A stretch of 64,000 nucleotides of DNA, taken from contig JACOXY010000014.1 of the NCBI GenBank assembly GCA_016182095.1, positions 7,234-71,233 of the forward strand, read 5' to 3'. The DNA comes from Candidatus Liptonbacteria bacterium. Its GTDB lineage: Bacteria > Patescibacteriota > Minisyncoccia > UBA6257 > JACOXY01. The translations under genes were made by a program, and so were the position numbers. The notes under the pieces were generated by a model. That model was not told the DNA's origin. It saw nothing but the letters and a program-made list of their open reading frames with translations, and searched no databases. Shown piece after piece: positions 4,387 to 33,013 of this stretch (the stretch's first letter is position 1; the number at the start of each line of letters is the position of its first letter).

Positions 4387-7300
4387 CTAAATATCTAAAT
4401 TTTTGACCCCAGCGGCGTGAGTTTGGATAAATTGTTTTCTGGGCTCAACTTCGTCGCCCATTAAAATATCAAAAAGTTTATCGGCGTCTTCGGCATCTTT
4501 TACGGTTACAACCAGCATTTTGCGGGTAGCGGGATTCATGGTGGTATCCCAAAGCTGATCCGGATTCATCTCGCCCAAACCTTTATATCGCTGAACATTA
4601 ACCGCAACTCGCCTATCCCCCGCCGCCTCTTCAGCGTCCGCTTTCTCCGCTTCTTTTAATTCATGCTTTCCGGCTCGCGCTTTGCCAAATTTCACGATGA
4701 TCGCTTCTTTTTCGTTTTCATTATATGCATACTGAACCTCTTTGCCTGATTGAATTCTAAAAAGCGGCGGCTGGGCTATGTAAAGATAGCCGCCATGAAT
4801 AACCTGCGGAAAATAACGATAGAAAAGGGTGAGTAGCAGGGTGCGAATGTGCGCCCCATCAACGTCGGCATCGGTCATAATAACAATCTTGTGGTAACGA
4901 ATTTTTTCTATATTAAAGTCCTGGGCGATGGCGGTCCCCAGAGCCATCACCAGCGCGCGGATTTCTTTATTGGCAAGCATTTTATCTATGCGCGATTTTT
5001 CTACATTCAAAATTTTCCCGCGCAAAGGAAGTATTGCCTGCGTGCGCCGATCGCGGCCCATTTTTCCGCTATTGTGCACAAACACGCCAGAAGCCAATGC
5101 GAAATTATGAGTTTTAGGAACTTCAAGGTCATAAACATCAACTTTTTCATTAAGCCAAAGGATTTCTTTAATTTTGTGGTTATGACGCTCTACTGCTTCA
5201 ACTAAATTTCTTGCGTCGCTTCCAAAAAATCTTTTAACAATAGTTTCGGCGCGTAGCAAGTTTTTGTCATTAGTTGCTTTTCTTAGATTCTCATACTCAC
5301 TAAAGTCAATTTCGCCTTTAGTTTCGTAGATACCGCGCAAAGCTTGCAGGGCTTTCTGCTTATAGGTTTCGTTATAAGCAAGTTTTCTCCTTAAACGAAA
5401 TTCGGGCGTCCATTGATCTTTGGTTTTGCCGCTGCGCCATTTTTTAAGCTTCTCATCATTCCATTGTATTTTAGCGAATTCGGAGTAAGCAAGACGTTTT
5501 TCTGGATGGTTTTCAAAATAAGCTCGCGTGCGATTCGCTTGATCGCGCCGATTTTTTTCTTCTGACCAATATTCTTTTTGCGCTCTGCTTAAAATGCTCG
5601 CGCTCTGTGCCCGATAGGCCGCATTATTGTGATAAAAATCCAAAAATTTATCAGTCATAAATTGCTTATAATCTTTGTCTTGCCACTGTTTTTGGGCACG
5701 CTCACTTAGCATCTTTCTCATTTGTGGAGTAGACATGCTGGCTCTAATTTTATTCCTGTATTCAGGTGTCTGCCTTATTAGACGAAGTTTTTCTAAAACT
5801 TGAGGGGATCGCAAAAAAATATCCGCCATTTTACGATGCAGGCCTAAATGATCTTCGCTTGAAAGTCGTGTAATATTTTCCGGGTTATTGTTTAGTTTAT
5901 TGAAATCTATATGGTGTCTGTGCGCGCCAATGCTTTTTTCGTAAATATTATTTTTCAGATTATAGTCGTCAGATAGCATGTGGGTAAAAATCCATTTCTG
6001 GTTCTGCGAATTAAAAACCATTTCGTATCCGTCAATTGTAATGCGACCGCCAATTTTGGATATTTTTTTGTATAACGGCATTAGCGAGTCTTGCGATAAA
6101 AGATCCCTAGCTTTTTTATAAGAACCATTAAGAAGCATGAATTCGTGGTCTGGCGTACAAATAATTTCCTCGCCATTATCAAGCACAACTTTAACAACTT
6201 CTGTATTCTTTTTAGTAATCCTAGGATAAACTATTTTCTGTATTGCAACTGCCCCATCTTTATCAATGGTGTAGCAATAGTTTTGTATGCCTTTTTTATC
6301 CTCATGGACCAAATCCTTAAAAGACAAATTGCGTCCATCAGCCAGTGAAACTTTTGTGTTGCCCGAAAAACATCCTCCGGCTGAATCGCCTTCCACTATA
6401 AACAATTCCGATTCGGCCGGGTCTCGCGATGAGCAATCGGCTAATTTCCCTGGCAAGGTTAAGCCCTCAAGAATTCCTTTTCGCAAAACGGTGTCTTTCG
6501 CGGCCTTAGCGGCTTTGCGAGCTTTAGCCGCAAGCAAACACTTTTCAACCATTCTCCGCGCGTCAGCCGGATGTTTCTCTAAAAATTCTTTCAAAGACTC
6601 GCTTACCACCGATTCAACAACCGTTCTCGCCTCCGGAGTCCCAAGGCGGGCTTTGGTTTGCCCTTCAAATTGCGGTTGGGAAAGTTTAACGGAAATGACC
6701 GCCACCAAACCTTCGCGCACGTCATCGCCCGTCAAATTGTCGTCTTTTTCCTTTAAGTAACCCTCGGTTCGCGCGTAAGAATTGATGGCGCGGCTCAAAG
6801 CCGATTTAAACCCGGTTGAGTGCATGCCGCCATCGGAAGTATAGATGTTGTTGGCAAAACTTAACTCTTTTGATTCAATATCCTCGGTATAAGTAAAAGC
6901 TACTTCTACTTCTATGTTATTTTCGCTTTTTTGGATGTAAAAAGGATCGTCCTGCAGAACTTTCGCGGCAGGAGTAAGGTGCCGCAAAAACGAAAGCAGT
7001 CCGCCGTCAAATTTAAGGGCGTAATATTTTGGCGCGTCAGTCCTTAAATCCCAAAAGTCAATTCTAACTCCCTTTGTTAAAAACGCCTGCTGGCGCAAGT
7101 GGTCCAAAATATACTTCCAATCAAATTTAATCTCTCCGCCACCGGTTGAAAAAATCTCCGGGTCTGGCTCAAAAATAACTTTAGTGCCAATTTGATCGCA
7201 TTTACCGACCCTCTTCACGACTTTCTTCGCCTTGCCTCGTTCATATTCTTGCTCATAAAGATAGCCATCCCGACAAACTTCGGCTTTAAGATAAATTGAG

Positions 7301-7716
7301 AGCGCGTTAACCACAGAAACCCCAACGCCATGCAAACCACCGGAAACTTTATAAGAATCACCGCCAAATTTGCCCCCGGCGTGAAGCGTGGTCATAACTG
7401 TTTCCAGGGCGGATTTTTTCGTCTGCTTATGAATATCAACCGGGATGCCGCGCCCATTATCGGTAACCGCCACCCTATTCCCCGGCAAAAGCTCAACTTT
7501 GATAGCAGTGGCATACCCAGCCATCGCCTCATCAATAGAATTATCAACCACTTCCCAAATCAGGTGGTGCAAGCCGGCGCTGTCGGTTGTGCCAATATAC
7601 ATCCCGGGGCGCTTTCTTACCGGCTCAAGACCCTCCAAAACATAGATGTCCTTTGCTTCATAGCTCGCGTGCTTTGACGCGTCTGGAGTTTTTTTAGTTT
7701 CTTTTACTTTTGCCAT
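4387..7716 (-). CDS. gyrB: DNA gyrase subunit B, interrupted by an in-frame intein
   Basis: 1109-aa ORF; GHKL ATPase motifs, TOPRIM EGDSAGG and a C-terminal GyrB tail; host protein is about 675 aa once the 434-aa intein is removed. Confidence 0.95.
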   Translation of the reverse strand: MAKVKETKKTPDASKHASYEAKDIYVLEGLEPVRKRPGMYIGTTDSAGLHHLIWEVVDNSIDEAMAGYATAIKVELLPGNRVAVTDNGRGIPVDIHKQTKKSALETVMTTLHAGGKFGGDSYKVSGGLHGVGVSVVNALSIYLKAEVCRDGYLYEQEYERGKAKKVVKRVGKCDQIGTKVIFEPDPEIFSTGGGEIKFDWKYILDHLRQQAFLTKGVRIDFWDLRTDAPKYYALKFDGGLLSFLRHLTPAAKVLQDDPFYIQKSENNIEVEVAFTYTEDIESKELSFANNIYTSDGGMHSTGFKSALSRAINSYARTEGYLKEKDDNLTGDDVREGLVAVISVKLSQPQFEGQTKARLGTPEARTVVESVVSESLKEFLEKHPADARRMVEKCLLAAKARKAAKAAKDTVLRKGILEGLTLPGKLADCSSRDPAESELFIVEGDSAGGCFSGNTKVSLADGRNLSFKDLVHEDKKGIQNYCYTIDKDGAVAIQKIVYPRITKKNTEVVKVVLDNGEEIICTPDHEFMLLNGSYKKARDLLSQDSLMPLYKKISKIGGRITIDGYEMVFNSQNQKWIFTHMLSDDYNLKNNIYEKSIGAHRHHIDFNKLNNNPENITRLSSEDHLGLHRKMADIFLRSPQVLEKLRLIRQTPEYRNKIRASMSTPQMRKMLSERAQKQWQDKDYKQFMTDKFLDFYHNNAAYRAQSASILSRAQKEYWSEEKNRRDQANRTRAYFENHPEKRLAYSEFAKIQWNDEKLKKWRSGKTKDQWTPEFRLRRKLAYNETYKQKALQALRGIYETKGEIDFSEYENLRKATNDKNLLRAETIVKRFFGSDARNLVEAVERHNHKIKEILWLNEKVDVYDLEVPKTHNFALASGVFVHNSGKMGRDRRTQAILPLRGKILNVEKSRIDKMLANKEIRALVMALGTAIAQDFNIEKIRYHKIVIMTDADVDGAHIRTLLLTLFYRYFPQVIHGGYLYIAQPPLFRIQSGKEVQYAYNENEKEAIIVKFGKARAGKHELKEAEKADAEEAAGDRRVAVNVQRYKGLGEMNPDQLWDTTMNPATRKMLVVTVKDAEDADKLFDILMGDEVEPRKQFIQTHAAGVKNLDI
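5071..6372 (-). other. intein (Hint splicing domain with an HNH endonuclease-like domain and a basic repeat-rich region) in gyrB, inserted immediately after EGDSAGG
   Basis: starts with Cys (CFSGNTKVSLADG...TPDHEF), ends ...VYDLEVPKTHNFALASGVFVHN followed by Ser+1; internal HRHHIDFNKLNNNPENITRLSSEDH is an HNH motif; residues 449-882 of the ORF. Confidence 0.8.
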
Positions 7717-22125: not shown

Positions 22126-22851
22126 TTACCTCTTATAATCTGCGTGCCAGCTGACATTTTTAATTATAACGGTTTCCAAGTCAAAATTAATTTTTGTCTC
22201 AGTGTGTTGGTCTAATCCATACGATTCATTAATACAGTTAAATTGTACTGTAGCGACCATGCCCTCATCGTCGGTCTCTTTTTCTGAGTTTTTAAAACTA
22301 TTCCACTCTCTTTTTAATTCTTCTAATGCGCTTGGATAAATACTTTCACATTTTAAATCAGGATTTACAGAATCGGCAACGAGTATTGGCTTTTCAATTT
22401 TCTTGTTATTGATTGTTGTTATTGCTGGTCTAAACGCTATTCCCTTTCCAATATTTTTTAATTTTAGTTCTTTTTTACTCTTCTCACCCACAAAGCAAAA
22501 TATAAGATTTGGGAGGTATGAGAGACGGTTGGCCGCATGAATTTCTAAATGAACTCTTCTTATTTCACCAACGCAGAAGAATAAAACGCCAACGATTCCA
22601 AAAAATCCAGAAATTATCCAGTATTGCCATCCATGCCAAGAAAAAAGTAAAAAGTAAATAGTCGCCATGCCCGAAAGGGCACCAAGAAGATAAAATTTTC
22701 CAGATAGATCCTCTTTAAAAAGGTATGCATCAATATTCTTGTAACGGTTTAAATATTTTTTAATTTTGTGCCGCGTCAAAATTGCCAAAACAATAAGTGT
22801 TAGCAGAAGTACCCAGATTAAGAAATCTATATTTAAAATAAGCTTATTCAT
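22126..22851 (-). CDS. hypothetical integral membrane protein (241 aa)
   Basis: multiple hydrophobic helices in the N-terminal half. Confidence 0.5.
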   Translation of the reverse strand: MNKLILNIDFLIWVLLLTLIVLAILTRHKIKKYLNRYKNIDAYLFKEDLSGKFYLLGALSGMATIYFLLFSWHGWQYWIISGFFGIVGVLFFCVGEIRRVHLEIHAANRLSYLPNLIFCFVGEKSKKELKLKNIGKGIAFRPAITTINNKKIEKPILVADSVNPDLKCESIYPSALEELKREWNSFKNSEKETDDEGMVATVQFNCINESYGLDQHTETKINFDLETVIIKNVSWHADYKR

Positions 22852-23086: not shown

Positions 23087-23101
23087 TTAGTTATCCACAG
23101 A

Positions 23102-23163
23102 CTTTCGGTTTGCTTTCGGGTCTATTTGCTATAATTATAATATACCGAAAGTAAACCGAAAAT
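23102..23163. promoter_or_regulatory. candidate operator: 17-bp inverted repeat TTTCGGTTTGCTTTCGG, 26 bp, CCGAAAGTAAACCGAAA, bracketing a TATAAT -10 box 4 nt upstream of the LexA-methyltransferase gene
   Basis: one mismatch between the arms; each arm holds two CTTTCGG/CCGAAAG heptads; TATAATTATAATATA lies in the spacer. Confidence 0.5.
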
Positions 23164-23166
23164 AGA

Positions 23167-24501
23167 ATGATTACACAAAAGAAAAAAGAAATATTAGATT
23201 TCGTAAAAAGTTATTCTAAAAAGAGAGGGTATTCTCCTACCATTCCTGAAATCGCAACAAAAATTGGACGGGCTTTTGGAACCATTCACGAACATCTTCG
23301 GGGGCTAGAGGAAGATGGCTTTATCCAACTTAACAAAAATCAACGCCGAGGAATAGCGATTCTTGAGTCAACCCCGATGATTAAAATTCCACTACTTGGC
23401 ACCATAGCCGCCGGCTCACCTTTAACACTCTTTGATGTGCCACAAGAAACAATCGCTGTTCCAAAAAGCAAGGTTCACTCATCTTCGGAAGTATATGCGC
23501 TTCGTGTTGTTGGGAACAGCATGATTGATGAAAATATAAATGATGGAGATATTGTTTTAGTGCACCACCAAAAAACTGCAGAAAACGGGCAGAAGGTTGT
23601 CGCGCTTATTGACAACCACGAAGCAACGCTAAAGAAATTCTACAAGGAGAGGGGGCAAATCCGCTTACAGCCAGCAAACAAAAATATGGAGCCGCTTATT
23701 TTTAGAAATGGCCGAGATGTTTCTATACAGGGAGTAATCATTGATGTTATAAGAGAAGAAACACCGGCATCTATTTCTTTGCCAGAAGTAAAAACAGAAA
23801 TTAAACAATATAAAAAACTGCCACTTAATCAAATTATTCACGGAGATGCCGTGGAGGGGTTAAAGAAACTACCAGACGACTCTATTGATTTAGTAGTCAC
23901 CGATCCCCCATATGGAATCAGTAGAGAGCTTAATTGCAAAGGTCAAAGATTGGGAACAACGGCAAAACTGAATTTTAATTTTGGTGAGTGGGATACCTTT
24001 AATAAAGATTGGTTTGAGATTGCGTTGAAAAAAACTAGAGGCTGGATGATGACCTTTTGTGCAAAAAAAGACGTAGGCTTTTTTATTGATGGTTTAGAAA
24101 AAAATGGATTTATTGCAATTGACGTGTTGGTTTGGCAGAAACCCGACCCCATTCCTCTAAACGCGAAATCCAGATTTCTTAATGCATGGGAGGCGGTAGT
24201 GATAGGCAAAAAGCCAGGCGCCATTTGGAATAGCAAATATGAACACAACATCATTAAAGTTCAGGCCCCCAAAGGGAAGAGCAGGATTCATCCCACACAG
24301 AAACCTGTTGAACTTATAAAAAAATTAATCAATTTAACCACCAAAGAGGGTGATGTTGTATTAGACCCGTTTATGGGTAGTGGAACAACAGCCGTAGCCT
24401 GTTTAGAAACGAAAAGAAACTACGTTGGTTTTGAAATATCAGAGGAGTATAGGAACCAATCCCTAAAAAGAATAAAAGCACTGCCAAAAGAGTTATTTTA
24501 A
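23167..24501 (+). CDS. fusion protein: complete LexA-type repressor (HTH plus S24 self-cleaving peptidase) joined to a beta-class N6-adenine/N4-cytosine DNA methyltransferase
   Basis: residues 1-198 align with LexA (cleavage site TIAAG|SP, Ser in VVGNSM, Lys in ATLKKF); residues about 205-444 carry DPPY (DLVVTDPPYGI) followed by FMGSGTTAVA. Confidence 0.8.
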   Translation: MITQKKKEILDFVKSYSKKRGYSPTIPEIATKIGRAFGTIHEHLRGLEEDGFIQLNKNQRRGIAILESTPMIKIPLLGTIAAGSPLTLFDVPQETIAVPKSKVHSSSEVYALRVVGNSMIDENINDGDIVLVHHQKTAENGQKVVALIDNHEATLKKFYKERGQIRLQPANKNMEPLIFRNGRDVSIQGVIIDVIREETPASISLPEVKTEIKQYKKLPLNQIIHGDAVEGLKKLPDDSIDLVVTDPPYGISRELNCKGQRLGTTAKLNFNFGEWDTFNKDWFEIALKKTRGWMMTFCAKKDVGFFIDGLEKNGFIAIDVLVWQKPDPIPLNAKSRFLNAWEAVVIGKKPGAIWNSKYEHNIIKVQAPKGKSRIHPTQKPVELIKKLINLTTKEGDVVLDPFMGSGTTAVACLETKRNYVGFEISEEYRNQSLKRIKALPKELF

Positions 24502-25475
24502 TTCTCTGGATACACAAGCATTGCTTTAATGCTGCGCAAATCCTTTAAATTAAGAGAGGTTTGTTTCCGACGAATCTCTTTTTTTAGCGACAAGAATCTT
24601 CTCCTTTTTTCGCGTAACTTTTTTCTGAGAAGTTTAACTACTTTCTTGGCATCAGCACTGTATATTTTTTTGACTAGGAATTCATTTTTATCAACACTGG
24701 CAAGTATTATGCTTTTATCTACAAGGTACTTATTCAAAACTTCGTTTGAAATATCTTGGAAGCTCCACGTGAATCCCTTTGCAACTTTATATTCGTACAT
24801 GTTGCCATGATTATCTTCCGCATCATGCTTCGCTTGTTCCGACTGAACTTTATGGTTTAGTTTCAGCGCTACTAAAACCTCCCAAAATTTATTACTTGTA
24901 AGAATTCCTTTTGTTCCGGTTGCTGTTTCAATTTTGCTAGCAATTTTAATAATGCGCGTAATCCAAGATAAGTAATGCCCATTATAATTTTTGATAGTTT
25001 GTCTCGTGAGATTCAGGTTATTTTCAATTTGCCTGGAGCTCACGTTGATCATTTTCCTGCTATTTCTTATTTTTTTAGTTGCTTGTGCTAGATAATCTGA
25101 CATGACTTGCCCGGGCACTTCGTAATACCAATCAAATTTCGGGAAAGAAACATTAACGTCTTGTATGTGCGCGAAAATAACAGCTTCGGCGTTACTAAGT
25201 TTAGTTATGGTGGTATTGGAAAAGTCGTTAAAAGTCCATGAATGATTAGAGCTACTCTCTTTGTAGTGCTTATATTCAAACTCACCCCCTGCTGAATTTT
25301 TGGCATCACGTGAGCCAGAGTGGCCGGGAATAAGAGTGTGGTCTAGAGCGTCTGCAATAAGCACCTCAAATATTTTACTGTTCGTAATAATATCGGTAAC
25401 ACCAAAAGTTTTATAAAAATCAAACTGGATCTGCTTTAACTGCTCAATAAAATCATTTATACTATTAGTATTCAT
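24498..25475 (-). CDS. putative single-chain restriction endonuclease with two tandem PD-(D/E)XK-like domains (internal duplication) and a basic C-terminal tail
   Basis: repeated blocks KIFEVLIADALDH...RDAKNSAGGEFEYK and KFWEVLVALKLNH...HDAEDNHGNMYEYK; start may be Met1 (25493) or Met7 (25475); wedged between two methyltransferase genes. Confidence 0.55.
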   Translation of the reverse strand: MNTNSINDFIEQLKQIQFDFYKTFGVTDIITNSKIFEVLIADALDHTLIPGHSGSRDAKNSAGGEFEYKHYKESSSNHSWTFNDFSNTTITKLSNAEAVIFAHIQDVNVSFPKFDWYYEVPGQVMSDYLAQATKKIRNSRKMINVSSRQIENNLNLTRQTIKNYNGHYLSWITRIIKIASKIETATGTKGILTSNKFWEVLVALKLNHKVQSEQAKHDAEDNHGNMYEYKVAKGFTWSFQDISNEVLNKYLVDKSIILASVDKNEFLVKKIYSADAKKVVKLLRKKLREKRRRFLSLKKEIRRKQTSLNLKDLRSIKAMLVYPEN

Positions 25476-25477
25476 CG

Positions 25478-26317
25478 ATGAAAAGAATAACACTAAAAAG
25501 AAAATTTAGCACTGCGGCAGAAAGCTCCTTGATCTTCGGGGACGCTTTAAATATTTTGCGATCTATTCCAAGTCACTCCATTGACCACTGCATAACTGAC
25601 CCCCCGTATAATATTTCCGGATACGACTATAAAAAAAAGATTGGATGGCTCCAATCAAATAGCGCCTGGGTAGAGGAGAAAAACTTTTCAAAGATTGATG
25701 CTCGGTGGGATAAGTTTTCTGATAACGATTATCTAGCTTTTACCAAAAGCTGGATCTCTGAAGTAGCCAGAGTTCTCAAGCCAAATGGGAACATTATAAT
25801 TTTTGGTTCGTATCACAATATTTATCAAATCGGCTCTATTCTACAGGATATTGATCGTAAGCTAATTAACTCTGTTGTATGGTATAAACGAAACGCATTT
25901 CCAAATGTAACACAAAGGATGCTTTGTGAGAGCACAGAGCATATAATTTGGGCTGTAAATGAAACCAAAAAAAATGCCAAGAACTGGACATTTAATTATA
26001 AAGCACTTAAAGAACTAAACGGCGGAGTACAAATGAGAAATATGTGGGATATACCATCAACTCCGGTTTCCGAAAAAAGGCACGGCAAGCATCCTTCTCA
26101 AAAACCGATTGAACTCATAAGCCGCCTTGTTCTTGGCGGGACCAACAAGAAAGATATTATCATTGATCCATTTATGGGTAGCGGCACTCTTCCGGTTGTG
26201 GCGCTAGTAAACGAAAGAGGATTTGTAGGAATTGACAACGATAAACAATACTGCAACCTGGCGCTAAAAAGAGTAGTGGATACTAGAAATCATCCAAAAC
26301 AAAACAAGGTTACTTAG
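25478..26317 (+). CDS. DNA methyltransferase (beta-class N6A/N4C)
   Basis: DHCITDPPYNI (motif IV) near the N-terminus and FMGSGTLPVVAL (motif I) near the C-terminus. Confidence 0.85.
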   Translation: MKRITLKRKFSTAAESSLIFGDALNILRSIPSHSIDHCITDPPYNISGYDYKKKIGWLQSNSAWVEEKNFSKIDARWDKFSDNDYLAFTKSWISEVARVLKPNGNIIIFGSYHNIYQIGSILQDIDRKLINSVVWYKRNAFPNVTQRMLCESTEHIIWAVNETKKNAKNWTFNYKALKELNGGVQMRNMWDIPSTPVSEKRHGKHPSQKPIELISRLVLGGTNKKDIIIDPFMGSGTLPVVALVNERGFVGIDNDKQYCNLALKRVVDTRNHPKQNKVT

Positions 26318-26635: not shown

Positions 26636-26726
26636 TGGCGGAGGCGGAAGGATTCGAACCTTCGATACCCTTGCGGGTATAACAGTTTTCAAGACTGTTT
26701 GTTTCAACCACTCACACACGCCTCCA
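26636..26726 (-). tRNA. tRNA-Ser (anticodon UGA), long variable arm, CCA encoded
   Basis: GGAGGCG acceptor, anticodon loop CUUGAAA, variable arm AUACCCGCAAGGGUAUC, T-loop UUCGAAU, ends CGCCUCC-G-CCA. Confidence 0.85.
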
Positions 26727-30090: not shown

Positions 30091-30203
30091 CAGAACCCTG
30101 ACAAAACCTAACCGCTCGGGCGGCGCGGAATTCCCCCCTTGAACCCCCCTTCCGCGCCGCCCTCGCGGGAAGTTCGTTTTTGCCCGCTTCGCGGGCACGC
30201 CGC
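30091..30203. repeat. left arm of an about 113-bp near-perfect inverted repeat bounding the R-M/ImmA island
   Basis: differs from the reverse complement of 33153-33265 at about 3 positions; GC-rich with internal palindromes. Confidence 0.85.
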
Positions 30204-30601
30204 TATTTCTTCGGGAAAAGATACTCAACCGCCACTCTCAACATCAAGTAAATCTGTGTTATTGTAGCAGTCACCAACAAACGGAAACTCCATTCTTCAA
30301 GAACAAATCCAAGCCATCCTGTTGCTTGAAGAAAAGCAAACGCGAAAATTATAAACGATTCGATACCGAGAAACCAGAGCAAGACCTTAAGCGTCAATTT
30401 CTTCAACTTAATATCTTGCTCAAGATCTACATTCTTTAGTTTTTCTCTCTTTGCTAATTCCTCTTTAATTCTAACCGGCTTTTGTTCAGAATACGAAAAT
30501 TCACTAGACGACTTTAATAGTTCCGCAACAGATTCAAAAGAAAGTGCTGGAGTTTCTTGCACTTCGGGCTCGTTTTTTGTCTTTTCTTTTTTATCAGTCA
30601 T
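30203..30601 (-). CDS. hypothetical small membrane protein (132 aa; charged N-terminus, 2 TM)
   Basis: last gene of the island operon; overlaps the end of the left inverted repeat. Confidence 0.45.
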   Translation of the reverse strand: MTDKKEKTKNEPEVQETPALSFESVAELLKSSSEFSYSEQKPVRIKEELAKREKLKNVDLEQDIKLKKLTLKVLLWFLGIESFIIFAFAFLQATGWLGFVLEEWSFRLLVTATITQIYLMLRVAVEYLFPKK

Positions 30602-30605
30602 ATCG

Positions 30606-31133
30606 TTAGTTAACGAGCCCCAACCTGCTCAACCTGATACTCATTGCCTCGACCGAAACATTGAAGACTTCTGCACAATCTTCGACATCTCTTAATTTTT
30701 CCCACGCTTTCTTAACGAGCTCCGCTGGCATAATTAAAGACGCCGCAAAGTTATTTGCTTCGGTTTCTAGTTTTGTTGAAGTGGCTTCATCTCTCCGATA
30801 AAGCATTCCCGCTCTATCGAGAACATTCTCTTCGTCAACGAAAAACTCTTTCTTTATTTCCTCTTGATGCAAAAAATAGTGTCCAAGTTCGTGAGCAATG
30901 GTAAAGTATTGTCTGGTAGGCGATTTTGTATTGTTAATGAGAATAGAAAAATTATTTTCTTCCTGGAAAAATCCAATAACCCCCGATACTTTATCGGGCA
31001 ACTTGCCTGTCCGGAATATTTTCAAATCACTTTTATCCTTCTGAATATTTTCATAGGGAAAAGGCGAAAGCCCCTCGGGGTTATACTTTTTTGAAATTTC
31101 TTCAGCGTAATTACAAATTTCCTGTATAGTCAT
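30606..31133 (-). CDS. ImmA/IrrE-family metallo-endopeptidase (COG2856, DUF955)
   Basis: YFTIAHELGHYFLH HEXXH motif and ETEANNFAASLIMP block. Confidence 0.8.
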   Translation of the reverse strand: MTIQEICNYAEEISKKYNPEGLSPFPYENIQKDKSDLKIFRTGKLPDKVSGVIGFFQEENNFSILINNTKSPTRQYFTIAHELGHYFLHQEEIKKEFFVDEENVLDRAGMLYRRDEATSTKLETEANNFAASLIMPAELVKKAWEKLRDVEDCAEVFNVSVEAMSIRLSRLGLVN

Positions 31134-31140
31134 ATTGTTG

Positions 31141-31857
31141 CTATTTGATTTTACGCTTTATTATTTCGACCAAGTTCTCTGGTTTGACTAGAAATGTCTT
31201 GAACTCATCAAAATTTTTATCAGTAATACCAATTTGAAACTCGATACCTCCTCGGTGCTGATGGCTTCTCATGGGGTGTTTTTTGACTTCTTTATCTGAA
31301 AGAACCCAATAATAAATTTTGTCTATCCACACACCAACGAAAACAAAAACATCTACAATATCCAGTTTAAGCTGTTGAAAATTCATCCAATATGGCTCAT
31401 CGGACTCAAAACTTAATGCTTTGGTTTCTAATCCGCCTCTAATTTTTGTGTTGATTGCTCGTGATGCTTTTACTTCAATCTTGATTATTTTACTTCCGTT
31501 TTCAAGATAGAGATCGTAGTCGCCGGAATACTTTTTATCAATCTGTTTTGATGGTTTCTTAAACCCTGAATCCACATCTATCAAATGCTGTTGCGCCCAA
31601 ATTTCACCAAAAACACGAGGTGAAATGTTGTAAAGATTTAGATATGGGTTCGCATTAACATACGCATCTCTTAATGCCTCATATTCTTTGAAAGTGATGA
31701 CTTTCTTATCAAGCAAATACATTAAACGATACTCGTACTCATTAAAGGGATAAATAGATTTTAGCCCGCTCAAATGGGCCAAAAGAATTTTTCGATCTTC
31801 TTGCGGTAATTCTTTGACCCACGCTTCAAGTTTTTTATCTAAATTTTTCTTATCCAT
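31141..31857 (-). CDS. putative type II restriction endonuclease (PD-(D/E)XK)
   Basis: GDYDLYLENGSKIIKIEVKAS is a D...EVK catalytic core; directly downstream of the methyltransferase. Confidence 0.55.
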   Translation of the reverse strand: MDKKNLDKKLEAWVKELPQEDRKILLAHLSGLKSIYPFNEYEYRLMYLLDKKVITFKEYEALRDAYVNANPYLNLYNISPRVFGEIWAQQHLIDVDSGFKKPSKQIDKKYSGDYDLYLENGSKIIKIEVKASRAINTKIRGGLETKALSFESDEPYWMNFQQLKLDIVDVFVFVGVWIDKIYYWVLSDKEVKKHPMRSHQHRGGIEFQIGITDKNFDEFKTFLVKPENLVEIIKRKIK

Positions 31858-31860
31858 AGA

Positions 31861-32805
31861 TTAAACTAAATCAAGAAGCGTTGGCGCGCCCAACAATTCT
31901 TCATCTTTTACTAAAATTTGGCCGTCTTTTAGAACTTTTAGCCGCCCCCACCCCATCTCGCCTGTGCGCCGGTGGTGAAGTAAACGTGCAGCCATAATCT
32001 TACAATAATTCGGATTTATATCCATTGTGTAGCATTTTCTTTTGCTCAACTCTGCCTGCAATAAGGTTGAACCGGAATGACCAAAAAAATCTACAACAAG
32101 ATCGTCAGTTTTGCTACTGGCCTCGATTATCCGTTTCGCGGATTTTAGAGGTTTCTGTGCAAAACACCCCTCAATATTCTCATGCATCAAATAAAAAACT
32201 TGTTGAATGTCATGCCAAACATTACCCGCGCGAATTGTTAGCGATTTACTCCTTTCAAAATTTTCAGTCATTTTTCCGTTCACTTTTTTGTAATATCCTT
32301 TTGTCTTTTTAGGTATATCTGTATATTCAGCCTGGACATCAAAAGCTGGCTCTCCCTTTATGTAGTAAAGCAGTTCTTGACGAATAGCCATCCAGTTTTT
32401 TTGTGTTCCATACCCTCTTTGATTTCTCATGGTAATAAAGCTCCGAATCTTCACCGGCTTATTCCTCATCATAAGAATAAAATCGGGCAATGGTTGTAAA
32501 CCACTCCTAACATCTGCCCCAAGCCAAACATAAAATGAAGAATTGTTATGAAGTATGTCTAGTGTATTATCAACCCACTTTTCGCTCCAATTCATATATT
32601 GATCTAGTGGCAAATTTCCGAATTCGTCGTTGATGTCCACATTGTAAGGCGGGTCTTGCACCGCTAACACGGCTTTTTCTTTTTCCATCAATTTTTCAAC
32701 ATCTTCTTTTTTGGAAACATCAAGACAACCAACGCGATGACCGCTAACTGGGTCTTCCCAAATCATTCCGTATTCAAAATTTGGCAAGCTGTTAGTTTTT
32801 GCCAT
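31861..32805 (-). CDS. DNA methyltransferase (beta-class N6A/N4C)
   Basis: VQDPPYNVDIN (motif IV) and FFGHSGSTLLQAE (motif I); start uncertain (the ORF extends to 32841 and overlaps the HTH gene). Confidence 0.8.
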   Translation of the reverse strand: MAKTNSLPNFEYGMIWEDPVSGHRVGCLDVSKKEDVEKLMEKEKAVLAVQDPPYNVDINDEFGNLPLDQYMNWSEKWVDNTLDILHNNSSFYVWLGADVRSGLQPLPDFILMMRNKPVKIRSFITMRNQRGYGTQKNWMAIRQELLYYIKGEPAFDVQAEYTDIPKKTKGYYKKVNGKMTENFERSKSLTIRAGNVWHDIQQVFYLMHENIEGCFAQKPLKSAKRIIEASSKTDDLVVDFFGHSGSTLLQAELSKRKCYTMDINPNYCKIMAARLLHHRRTGEMGWGRLKVLKDGQILVKDEELLGAPTLLDLV

Positions 32806-33013
32806 TGTTGAAAAATTCTTTTGGGCTAATTTCGAGTGCATGGGCTAATTTTTGGATATTTTTTAAGGCCGGATTTCTTATTCCTCGCTCAATGCCACTT
32901 ATGTAGGTTCGATGTAGTCCAGTAATTTTTGATAATTGACCTTGCGAAATTGCTCGTTTTTCTCTCAATTCTCGCAACCGCTTGCCAAATTTTGATAATT
33001 CTTGATTCTTCAT
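32792..33013 (-). CDS. XRE-family HTH transcriptional regulator (controller-protein position of the R-M operon)
   Basis: LRELREKRAISQGQLSKITGLHRTYISGIERG is a classic XRE helix-turn-helix; 73 aa. Confidence 0.8.
   Translation of the reverse strand: MKNQELSKFGKRLRELREKRAISQGQLSKITGLHRTYISGIERGIRNPALKNIQKLAHALEISPKEFFNNGKN

Follow-up and report, generated by a model that had tools for sequence, protein, structure and literature searches.

Within a 64,000-nucleotide stretch of DNA from Candidatus Liptonbacteria bacterium (GenBank assembly GCA_016182095.1, contig JACOXY010000014.1, positions 7,234 to 71,233 of the forward strand; this whole stretch of 64 kb is hereafter called the window), a restriction-modification (R-M) locus at positions 23087-26317 includes a gene that joins, in a single chain, a complete LexA repressor, apparently of the self-cleaving kind, and a DNA methyltransferase (MTase). 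This protein, LexA-M1, is accompanied by a putative restriction endonuclease, R, and by a second MTase, M2. Sequence comparison suggests that its LexA part recognizes a private operator over the promoter of its own gene and retains the apparatus for cleavage upon DNA damage, whereas the fusion does not seem to act as the master repressor of the SOS regulon. Moreover, the same architecture recurs in many genomes of the candidate phyla radiation (CPR), where LexA proteins of this clade are associated with restriction functions of several kinds.

A complete LexA repressor fused to a beta-class methyltransferase

Pfam divides the 444-amino acid (aa) product into LexA_DNA_bind (aa 2-62; 1e-10), Peptidase_S24 (aa 75-192; 3.5e-30) and N6_N4_Mtase (aa 240-432; 6e-42). 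The N-terminal part reaches 177 bits against the NCBIfam lexA equivalog TIGR00498, whose cut-off is 111, with aa 2-197 covering positions 4-201 of the 203 in the profile, and the same residues align end to end with the LexA proteins of T. maritima and E. coli in a sequence search of the PDB, in which aa 222-437 match the small beta-class adenine MTase 5hek (6.7e-37). The AlphaFold (AF2) model built from 36 homologues comprises three folded units, namely, a winged helix-turn-helix (wHTH) at residues 1-65, with three helices and a wing at a predicted local distance difference test (pLDDT) of about 90, a beta-rich S24 unit at 71-195, and the MTase at 222-437; in the connection between the last two units, residues 198-211 have a pLDDT below 50. 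M1, a C-terminal extension of approximately 245 aa, shows the motif order of the beta class, with motif IV (DPPY), the target recognition domain and motif I (FMGSGT) in succession, and is also matched by the PADLOC profile MTase_II (2.5e-53). An earlier note on this DNA had read residues 1-198 as a LexA protein with its N-terminal HTH, followed by a linker and a beta-class MTase, and all of these searches uphold that reading: the profiles place the N-terminal part in the LexA family, they delimit the LexA, S24 and N6_N4_Mtase domains, and the motifs TIAA/GSP, GNSM, TLKKF, DPPY and FMGSGT lie exactly where they had been pointed out.

Alignment with E. coli LexA equates A82-G83, S118 and K156 of the fusion with A84-G85, S119 and K156, respectively. 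The Ala-Gly pair, the Ser, the Lys, and also the Thr located two residues ahead of the Lys (equivalent to Thr154) are unchanged in all 96 full-length fusions compared. The S24 domain is the best-kept segment of the protein: against fusions that share only 20-26% identity with the window protein in the MTase core, it is still 76-85% identical. The DNA-binding domain shows 37-60% identity between the window protein and other fusions. These comparisons strongly support that the LexA moiety, with its intact Ala-Gly site and Ser/Lys dyad, is under strong purifying selection and, from the invariance of the catalytic apparatus (96/96), we infer that the LexA part cleaves itself and is tied to DNA damage.

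A putative private operator that varies with the LexA recognition helix

The region ahead of the fusion gene presents, in this order, the 9-mer TTATCCACA, a first repeat, an extended -10 element and a second, inverted repeat, after which the ATG is found at 23167. The two 17-nucleotide (nt) arms, at 23103-23119 and 23145-23161, show 94% complementarity, each arm being itself a direct repeat, and they are the only exact matches to TTCGG-N6-TTCGG in the window, where no further operator copies were found, including upstream of ssb. The promoter was not called by a generic sigma-70 scan, which found no -35 partner, consistent with a promoter of the extended -10 type. Among 86 related loci, 85 carry a direct repeat of 11-bp period within 170 nt upstream, mostly in the spacer between -35 and -10 or over the -35 region; in the homologous loci, a TATAAT-like hexamer follows 0-13 nt after the repeat, and an inverted copy downstream of the -10 element is also present in L029, L051, L054, L062 and L172. 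The repeat unit differs among loci (TTCGG, CTCGG, TCGGG, TTCGA, TTCTA, TTCGT or TTAGG), both copies agreeing within a locus, and GTTC-N7-GTTC appears as the operator in the relatives L023, L056 and L057.

This variation follows the residue located between the two histidines of the LexA recognition helix, as compared in 86 loci (L001-L088 and the window). When this residue is Q or E, the units end in CGG (TTCGG, CTCGG or TCGGG) in 34 of 35 such loci; F or Y goes with TTCTA, together with some mixed TTCGA/TTCTA pairs; and H goes with TTCGA in seven of nine loci. The window and L004 have MTase segments 81-91% identical, and yet their helices read HEH and HFH and their units TTCGG and TTCTA, respectively; thus, the repeat tracks the LexA domain and not the MTase. 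On the same comparison, the possibility that the direct repeat is the target site of the MTase itself was rejected. The covariation between helix and unit, in an association that ignores phylogeny, bears the signature of direct read-out by LexA. The earlier note had also drawn attention to a repeat at 23102-23163 as a candidate site for the N-terminal domain; the repeat is indeed there, in the form of the two complementary arms, and both its conserved position in 85 of 86 loci and its covariation with the helix lend strong comparative support to its role as a LexA site.

A further element stands beside the operator. The copy of TTATCCACA at 23091-23099, a perfect DnaA-box consensus within GTTATCCACAG, is the sole exact one in the window, and its reverse complement, the exact 9-mer TGTGGATAAC, occurs within 170 nt upstream in 56 of 83 fusion genes, where 0.1 would be expected. 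Between TGTGGATAAC and the first repeat unit, the gap is mostly of 1-2 or 12-15 nt, two values approximately one helical turn apart. The element is also found in the promoters of the stand-alone LexAs L085, L171, L172 and L173, and it directly precedes the -35 region of other genes, among them two for ribonucleotide reductases, infA and one for a helicase (L016:6006 and L088:13270 are among these sites). It is unlikely to be part of the LexA site, given that it remains invariant while helix and operator vary, that its spacing and orientation vary, and that it occurs without the repeat. Because TGTGGATAAC is constant whatever the LexA helix, it is probably bound by a conserved host factor, perhaps DnaA.

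A probably insulated LexA paralog

The operator seems to be private to the genes that encode its LexA. In the 917 kb of DNA flanking the 86 homologues, 76 exact repeats of the own type lie in the own promoters and none elsewhere; on the question of an SOS regulon, no further copy of the operator lies in the window or in those 917 kb, and no second lexA was found in the window. A metagenome scan for the 20-base consensus ACTTTCGGTTTNNTTTCGGTAT returned at least 120 contigs, and a LexA-family gene adjoins the site in 111 of the 120 listed, these 111 including 52 fusions, 18 stand-alone LexAs, 19 genes cut by contig ends and 11 cases in which the module is inverted with respect to the gene; among the contigs listed for this one operator class, fusions and stand-alone LexAs stand at about 3:1. 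In the low-GC contigs among the matches listed, the operator adjoins lexA-type genes only. The only clear exceptions listed are three high-GC contigs from outside the CPR (L190, L213 and L234; GC 0.64-0.70), in which ACTTTCGGTTTNNTTTCGGTAT precedes imuA or dnaE2 and, since these are classic SOS mutagenesis genes, they provide independent proof that the site is a real LexA box. Some lineage outside the CPR seems, in these three contigs, to use the same box for an SOS mutagenesis cassette.

Paralogy points in the same direction. The sister genome GCA_016186635.1 holds three LexA-related genes, distributed between locus L004 and another contig: the fusion L004, with the helix AHFH and a TTCTA operator; a distant S24 repressor of 237 aa (29% identity), 8 kb from the fusion; and a stand-alone LexA of the same clade (L171; 218 aa, 63% identity), with the helix AHEH and a CTCGG operator. 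With TTCTA in one and CTCGG in the other, the operators of the two same-clade paralogs are thus orthogonal. At L016, the promoter of a class II ribonucleotide reductase has a repeat of the TCGGG type, while that of the fusion is of the TTCTA/TTCGA type. Stand-alone CPR LexAs are 57-66% identical to the LexA part of the window protein and 75-90% identical to the LexA parts of other fusions, and stand-alone and fused LexAs therefore intermix. The search for a separate lexA suggested in the earlier note was, therefore, positive in the sister genome and, as far as the 64 kb and that genome allow one to judge, the fusion is an insulated LexA paralog and not the SOS master regulator.

Distribution and modularity of the fusion

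The window protein is identical to the NCBI entry 'transcriptional repressor LexA [Candidatus Liptonbacteria bacterium]'. The best 120 matches of a database protein search consist of 96 full-length fusions of 420-548 aa, the rest being stand-alone MTases of 245-259 aa with 66-80% identity to the C-terminal half of the fusion (70-80% for those of 248 aa). A locus scan with one genome per species yielded at least 568 candidates, and the best 80 of them, taken as fusion loci, extend across Parcubacteria and Microgenomates lineages. A convergent ORF (open reading frame) abuts or overlaps the stop codon of the fusion in 61 of 76 usable loci, and a co-directional ORF follows in 13 of the 76. The partners found elsewhere include a HindIII endonuclease (7e-77), a His-Me/EndoVII nuclease and a Dam-like MTase; at L086 and L088, the methylase gene converges on the gene for R, which is itself preceded on its own strand by a C gene (HTH_3). 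Given that the S24 domain is kept while the MTase cores differ, and that the nuclease partners are so varied, the LexA part is a modular unit that has been joined to the MTases of many different Type II systems.

Two different fusions, 37% identical overall, coexist in one genome (L001 and L036; assembly LCCV01, GW2011_GWA2_42_14). Both have the same operator class (TTTCGG); cross-repression or the formation of heterodimers is possible between them. A phage origin of the fusion as a feature was considered and rejected, as fusions make up only two of the 80 best matches in viral contigs.

LexAs of this clade are also found in operons with nucleases. A gene for a DpnI-family nuclease (PF06044, 1.5e-77) lies 6-8 nt downstream of lexA in L173 (5001-6412), L174 (4001-5414) and L175, and tblastn added two more such lexA-dpnI operons, in L210 and L212. 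The LexAs encoded in them have 211 aa, a conserved C-terminal tail (KKLxWMK) and a promoter with the box and the direct repeat as in the fusions, and the operons apparently represent SOS-gated Type IIM (methyl-directed) nucleases. Moreover, the stand-alone lexA of L171 overlaps the gene for a 355-aa protein with a weak match to a nuclease domain. Since several 'stand-alone' lexA genes thus head a lexA-dpnI operon, the LexA clade to which the fusions belong is repeatedly tied to restriction functions. At L089 (4330-5747), the gene 27 nt upstream of a non-fused M1 encodes an unrelated S24 repressor of the LexA-like kind (214 aa, 28% identity), which by its sequence is a second, independent pairing of an autocleaving repressor with the same R-M1-M2 system; this repressor has a probable Cys-Gly cleavage site.

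The earlier note had not recognized the architecture, and our literature search likewise found no paper that describes a LexA-MTase fusion, although the protein is widespread in Patescibacteria and is present in databases under the name of LexA; as far as we can tell, the fusion is, thus, both widespread and unreported. The survey of related genomes that the note had advised found the fusion again and again, in 96 protein clusters and 80 loci, and the occurrence of the same architecture in more than 80 independent assemblies excludes the misassembly at the domain junction that the note had regarded as fatal to its reading.

Partner genes, genomic setting and neighbouring systems

The fold assigned to R comes from structure prediction, because direct scans with Pfam and NCBIfam gave no match and the PDB sequence search gave only noise. 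The AF2 model of R (pLDDT 90.8) has as its best Foldseek match the engineered single-chain PvuII 3ksk (E 1e-14, TM 0.60-0.65, full length), followed by PvuII monomers (1e-6), and homology is evident between its two halves (30% identity, E 7e-11), with a D-x13-E-Y-K motif in each. More than 500 proteins belong to the family of R, and for nearly all of them a match to the PvuII family PF09225 of Pfam had been precomputed; the PADLOC profile REase_II matches R weakly (1.6e-5). Therefore, considering its homologous halves, its top structural match and the PvuII family assignment across its relatives, R would be a natural single-chain, pseudo-dimeric PvuII-like endonuclease that arose by tandem duplication. 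The members of the family are all annotated as 'hypothetical', and the matches include Clostridioides difficile and Zixibacteria.

R probably starts at the ATG at 25475, with an alternative GTG at 25493. The start codons of R and M2 are divergent and only 2 nt apart (25473-25480, CAT-cg-ATG), an arrangement kept in L001 and L004, and consequently the promoter of each gene must sit within the coding sequence of the other. M2 is matched by the PADLOC profile MTase_II (1.3e-74), and the R-M1-M2 module is present in two further CPR genomes (L001 and L004) at 73-77% identity. Judging from its genes, the locus is a Type II R-M system composed of M1, R and M2, in agreement with the earlier note, which had interpreted the convergent nuclease and the second MTase as such a system; the PvuII fold and the N6_N4_Mtase matches now substantiate it. 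Two MTases and a nuclease with diverged halves would fit an asymmetric recognition site. The locus contains no small HTH_3 controller gene upstream of R, such as those of L086, L088 and the second R-M operon of the window (32792-33013), and no Xre-type repressor with an M78 metallopeptidase (CapH/CapP type). The next gene upstream (22126-22851) was rejected as a member of the module, as the corresponding neighbours in L001 and L004 are not homologous to it.

A low-GC stretch at about 21.6-26.3 kb, with a GC content of 0.34-0.39 compared with 0.433 for the window, encompasses the module together with two ORFs located upstream of it. This stretch ends at a tRNA-Ser(TGA) gene, the likely boundary, which suggests a horizontally acquired island. 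The genes around it are housekeeping ones, as identified by Pfam (gyrB with an intein, ssb and relA/spoT), and rpoB/rpoC are likely nearby, according to ORF size and N-terminal sequence. The gyrB gene (4387-7716, minus strand) is split by an intein (Intein_splicing) at aa 456-881 of 1108. Within the same 10 kb, the window contains a second R-M operon, tied to a proteolytic switch of the DNA-damage type, which looks from its gene content like an R-M system under the control of a module of the CapH/CapP or ImmR/ImmA type. All of these features are compiled in Table 1.

Table 1. Features of the LexA-M1 locus and of its surroundings (positions in the window)
Feature	Position	Strand	Remarks
DnaA-box element	23091..23099	.	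TTATCCACA within GTTATCCACAG; perfect consensus, 4 nt upstream of the operator
Operator 1 (putative)	23103..23119	+	TTTCGG-TTTGC-TTTCGG, 11-bp period; over the -35 region
-10 region	23127..23141	+	Extended -10 TGcTATAAT (23127-23135) and overlapping second TATAAT (23136-23141); read from the sequence
Operator 2 (putative)	23145..23161	-	CCGAAA-GTAAA-CCGAAA, the repeat on the other strand; over the predicted transcription start and the 5' untranslated region
LexA-M1 fusion ORF	23167-24501	+	444 aa, open throughout
Winged-HTH DNA-binding domain of the LexA part	23167..23361	+	aa 1-65; PF01726, AF2 model, helix/operator covariation
Recognition helix			aa 38-44, G38-T-I-H-E-H-L44
S24 peptidase/dimerization domain	23377..23751	+	aa 71-195
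Cleavage site A82-G83	23410-23415	+	TIAA/GSP; alignment with E. coli LexA
Nucleophile Ser118	23518-23520	+	In GNSM; alignment with E. coli LexA
Base Lys156	23632-23634	+	In TLKKF; alignment with E. coli LexA
Linker	23758..23829	+	Roughly aa 198-221; residues 198-211 predicted disordered
M1, beta-class N6A/N4C DNA MTase domain	23830..24501	+	DPPY (aa 246-249) before FMGSGT (aa 402-407)
R, PvuII-like PD-(D/E)xK restriction endonuclease (predicted)	24498..25475	-	325 aa; convergent with M1, 4-nt overlap
M2, second N6_N4 DNA MTase, CcrM-like	25478..26317	+	279 aa; Pfam; DPPY and FMGSGT present
tRNA-Ser(TGA)	26636..26725	-	Edge of the low-GC island
Second R-M operon	30203-33013	-	
Membrane protein	30203-30601	-	131 aa; second R-M operon
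CapP-like/IrrE-like M78 metallopeptidase	30606-31133	-	9e-30; second R-M operon
Restriction endonuclease	31141-31857	-	PADLOC REase_II, 2e-41; second R-M operon
N6_N4 MTase	31861-32841	-	Second R-M operon
Xre-type HTH	32792-33013	-	73 aa; second R-M operon

Proposed circuit

On the basis of these features, it is rather probable that the fusion forms an autorepressed, damage-responsive methylase gene, its repressor being cleavable upon activation by RecA on single-stranded DNA (ssDNA; the activated form is denoted RecA*). By binding to the private operator, dimers of LexA-M1 would, in this circuit, repress their own promoter and keep M1 at a low and constant level. Filaments of RecA on ssDNA, originating from DNA damage or from another source, would stimulate autocleavage at A82-G83, separating the DNA-binding domain from a fragment composed of the S24 domain, the linker and the MTase. 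The promoter would then be derepressed and the MTase would rise. Moreover, transcription of M1 would run antisense through R and into M2, so that induction may lower R and raise M2, which is speculative; read-through from the M1 promoter into M2 is possible since no plus-strand terminator was predicted within R (24498-25475), the nearest plus-strand candidate being at 25772-25792, inside M2. By analogy, the net effect could be the Type II equivalent of SOS restriction alleviation, that is, extra modification while repair and recombination make unmethylated sites. Since the fusion and the housekeeping LexA differ in operator specificity, the circuit would respond to the SOS signal and yet neither join nor disturb the SOS regulon.

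More broadly, and tentatively enough that we would put it just short of probable, the LexA of these Patescibacteria may be a modular, orthogonal SOS sensor cassette by which RecA-ssDNA, arising from DNA damage or phage infection, would gate R-M functions apart from the housekeeping SOS response; private operators coded by the H-x-H motif of the helix, which matches the variable dinucleotide of the repeat unit, fusion to many Type II MTases and operons with DpnI-type nucleases would all be part of it.

Several points speak against this interpretation. After cleavage, the MTase would stay joined to the S24 domain, and the fragments of E. coli LexA are degraded after cleavage by ClpXP and Lon. 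Inducing the antidote instead of the toxin reverses the logic of both the CapH/CapP-type regulators and the lexA-dpnI operons and, for this reason, the purpose of inducing M1 is a guess, held to be less likely than the circuit itself. In addition, the same R-M1-M2 system exists without any LexA at L090, so the LexA module is dispensable, and the association between helix and operator does not take shared ancestry into account.

Alternative explanations

The arrangement could be read in other ways. If the fusion were the sole SOS master repressor of the organism, controlling recA, nrd, uvr and other genes and merely happening to carry an MTase, its score above the TIGR00498 cut-off, its name in NCBI, the close identity and shared promoter layout of stand-alone CPR LexAs (57-66% with the window protein, 75-90% with other fusions), the presence of the same repeat before imuA and dnaE2 in three high-GC contigs and the lack of a second lexA in the 64 kb would all be accounted for. 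Nevertheless, a master repressor would not be expected to have its operator nowhere else in the window, ssb included, or in the 917 kb around 86 homologues, nor beside lexA-type genes only in the low-GC contigs listed; neither does this role agree with the separate same-clade LexA and its different operator in the sister genome, the two fusions of L001 and L036 in one genome, the TCGGG repeat of the L016 ribonucleotide reductase promoter, unlike the TTCTA/TTCGA of its fusion, or a module that borders a tRNA gene within a low-GC island and is shuffled among unrelated MTases, so we regard it as improbable. A less distant alternative, although still unlikely, is that the LexA part serves only as a dimerizing autorepressor, a kind of built-in C protein that would allow a burst of methylase upon entry into a naive cell and keep expression low thereafter, with cleavage being vestigial or a means of turnover and with no input from damage. 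N-terminal HTH autorepressor extensions of the SsoII, EcoRII and MspI type and C proteins are indeed well known, promoter and operator overlap, the locus has the look of a horizontal acquisition and some related loci carry an ordinary C protein for R. However, a plain HTH would suffice for such a task, whereas the Ala-Gly site, the Ser, the Lys and the Thr154 equivalent are invariant in 96 of 96 fusions and no segment is better conserved than the S24 domain, which argues for selection on the cleavage chemistry or on the contact with RecA and not only on dimerization.

The signal could also have the opposite outcome, a self-restriction triggered by damage, in which the S24-MTase fragment would be degraded, methylation would lapse and the stable nuclease would kill the cell, in the manner of abortive infection or addiction. 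Cleavage would leave the N-terminal fragment with a terminal IAA similar to the VAA degron of E. coli LexA, whose fragments ClpXP and Lon degrade; R-M systems act as addiction modules, in the lexA-dpnI operons a nuclease is directly driven by this LexA clade, and other defence operons are induced by DNA damage (bioRxiv 10.1101/2022.04.27.489752). This outcome seems hardly likely to us, since cleavage would also derepress the gene, so that fresh protein would be made, M2 is separate and unaffected, and the small genome of a CPR bacterium would be destroyed at every SOS episode. Finally, since the same R-M system also occurs in split or LexA-less form (L089 and L090), one might think of an assembly chimera or a sequencing frameshift that joined two genes, but many independent projects have recovered the same architecture, its linker conserved, in 96 protein clusters and 80 genome loci; as the ORF is also uninterrupted and equal in length to its homologues, this chance is practically negligible. 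The autorepressed, RecA*-cleavable methylase gene is the reading retained in the comparisons that follow.

Relation to known regulatory systems

With canonical LexA (TIGR00498), the fusion has in common the wHTH, the hinge, the Ala-Gly site, the Ser/Lys pair and a putative direct-repeat operator in its own promoter. The LexAs of Alphaproteobacteria and Acidobacteria bind direct repeats of the form GTTC-N7-GTTC, and a direct-repeat LexA motif for Patescibacteria was reportedly described by Sanchez-Osuna, Barbe and Erill in 2017. The fusion differs from LexA in its C-terminal MTase of 245 aa, in an operator that in the CPR contigs listed is located at lexA-type genes only, in belonging to a mobile R-M module and in an operator specificity that differs between paralogs of one genome.

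MTases with N-terminal HTH regions that act as autorepressors are known from the M.SsoII/M.Ecl18kI, M.EcoRII and M.MspI types. Both these HTH-extended MTases and C proteins resemble the fusion in that a DNA-binding module is placed at an R-M gene, with a system-specific operator over the MTase promoter that avoids cross-talk; in the fusion, however, the module is a complete LexA, which would add a signal input, namely RecA* or DNA damage. The proposed outcome is similar to the alleviation of Type I restriction after DNA damage, which in E. coli depends on the loss of HsdR through ClpXP, as in both cases the balance would shift toward modification while repair makes unmodified sites, whereas the route proposed for the fusion is transcriptional and autoproteolytic and operates at a Type II MTase gene. 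R, for its part, is predicted to share with the engineered single-chain PvuII two PvuII-like halves in one chain, but it is a natural protein whose halves are now 30% identical, and two MTases accompany it.

The pairs ImmR/ImmA and DdrO/IrrE are related to the regulators that govern some immune operons in response to DNA damage. Such control of immune operons, R-M systems among them, is established for CapH/CapP, CapW and CapK/CapS (bioRxiv 10.1101/2022.04.27.489752; PMC11662680; PMC13373217), DdrO is cited as a related regulator (PMC10904395), and DNA-damage-responsive regulators of this sort are also found beside R-M systems (PMC13373217). As in the fusion under the proposed circuit, a defence repressor is inactivated in these systems by proteolysis or modification upon the appearance of ssDNA or DNA damage. 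Nevertheless, the sensor of the fusion would be RecA*-stimulated S24 self-cleavage, while theirs is a separate metallopeptidase, a kinase or a WYL domain; moreover, the repressor of the fusion is covalently joined to the enzyme that it would regulate, and its product is a protective methylase instead of an effector.

Significance

If the circuit operates as proposed, it would join the SOS response and Type II restriction-modification, which have so far been treated apart, and it would explain how a Type II system can spare its own chromosome when repair and recombination make unmodified sites. LexA self-cleavage would then take its place among the DNA-damage switches of immune operons, together with CapH/CapP, CapW and CapK/CapS. 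The code that relates helix to operator could provide synthetic biology with ready-made orthogonal, damage-inducible pairs of repressor and operator, as long as the module works as deduced here. Genes of the CPR annotated as 'LexA' should be taken with caution, since mostly they do not appear to encode SOS master regulators; in the contigs listed for one operator class, at about 3:1, the fusion is a dominant form of LexA in a large and uncultivated part of the bacterial tree. There, LexA-M1 would represent the first case of an R-M enzyme that doubles as a RecA*-cleavable repressor, and its relatives would constitute a natural set of orthogonal LexA/operator pairs.

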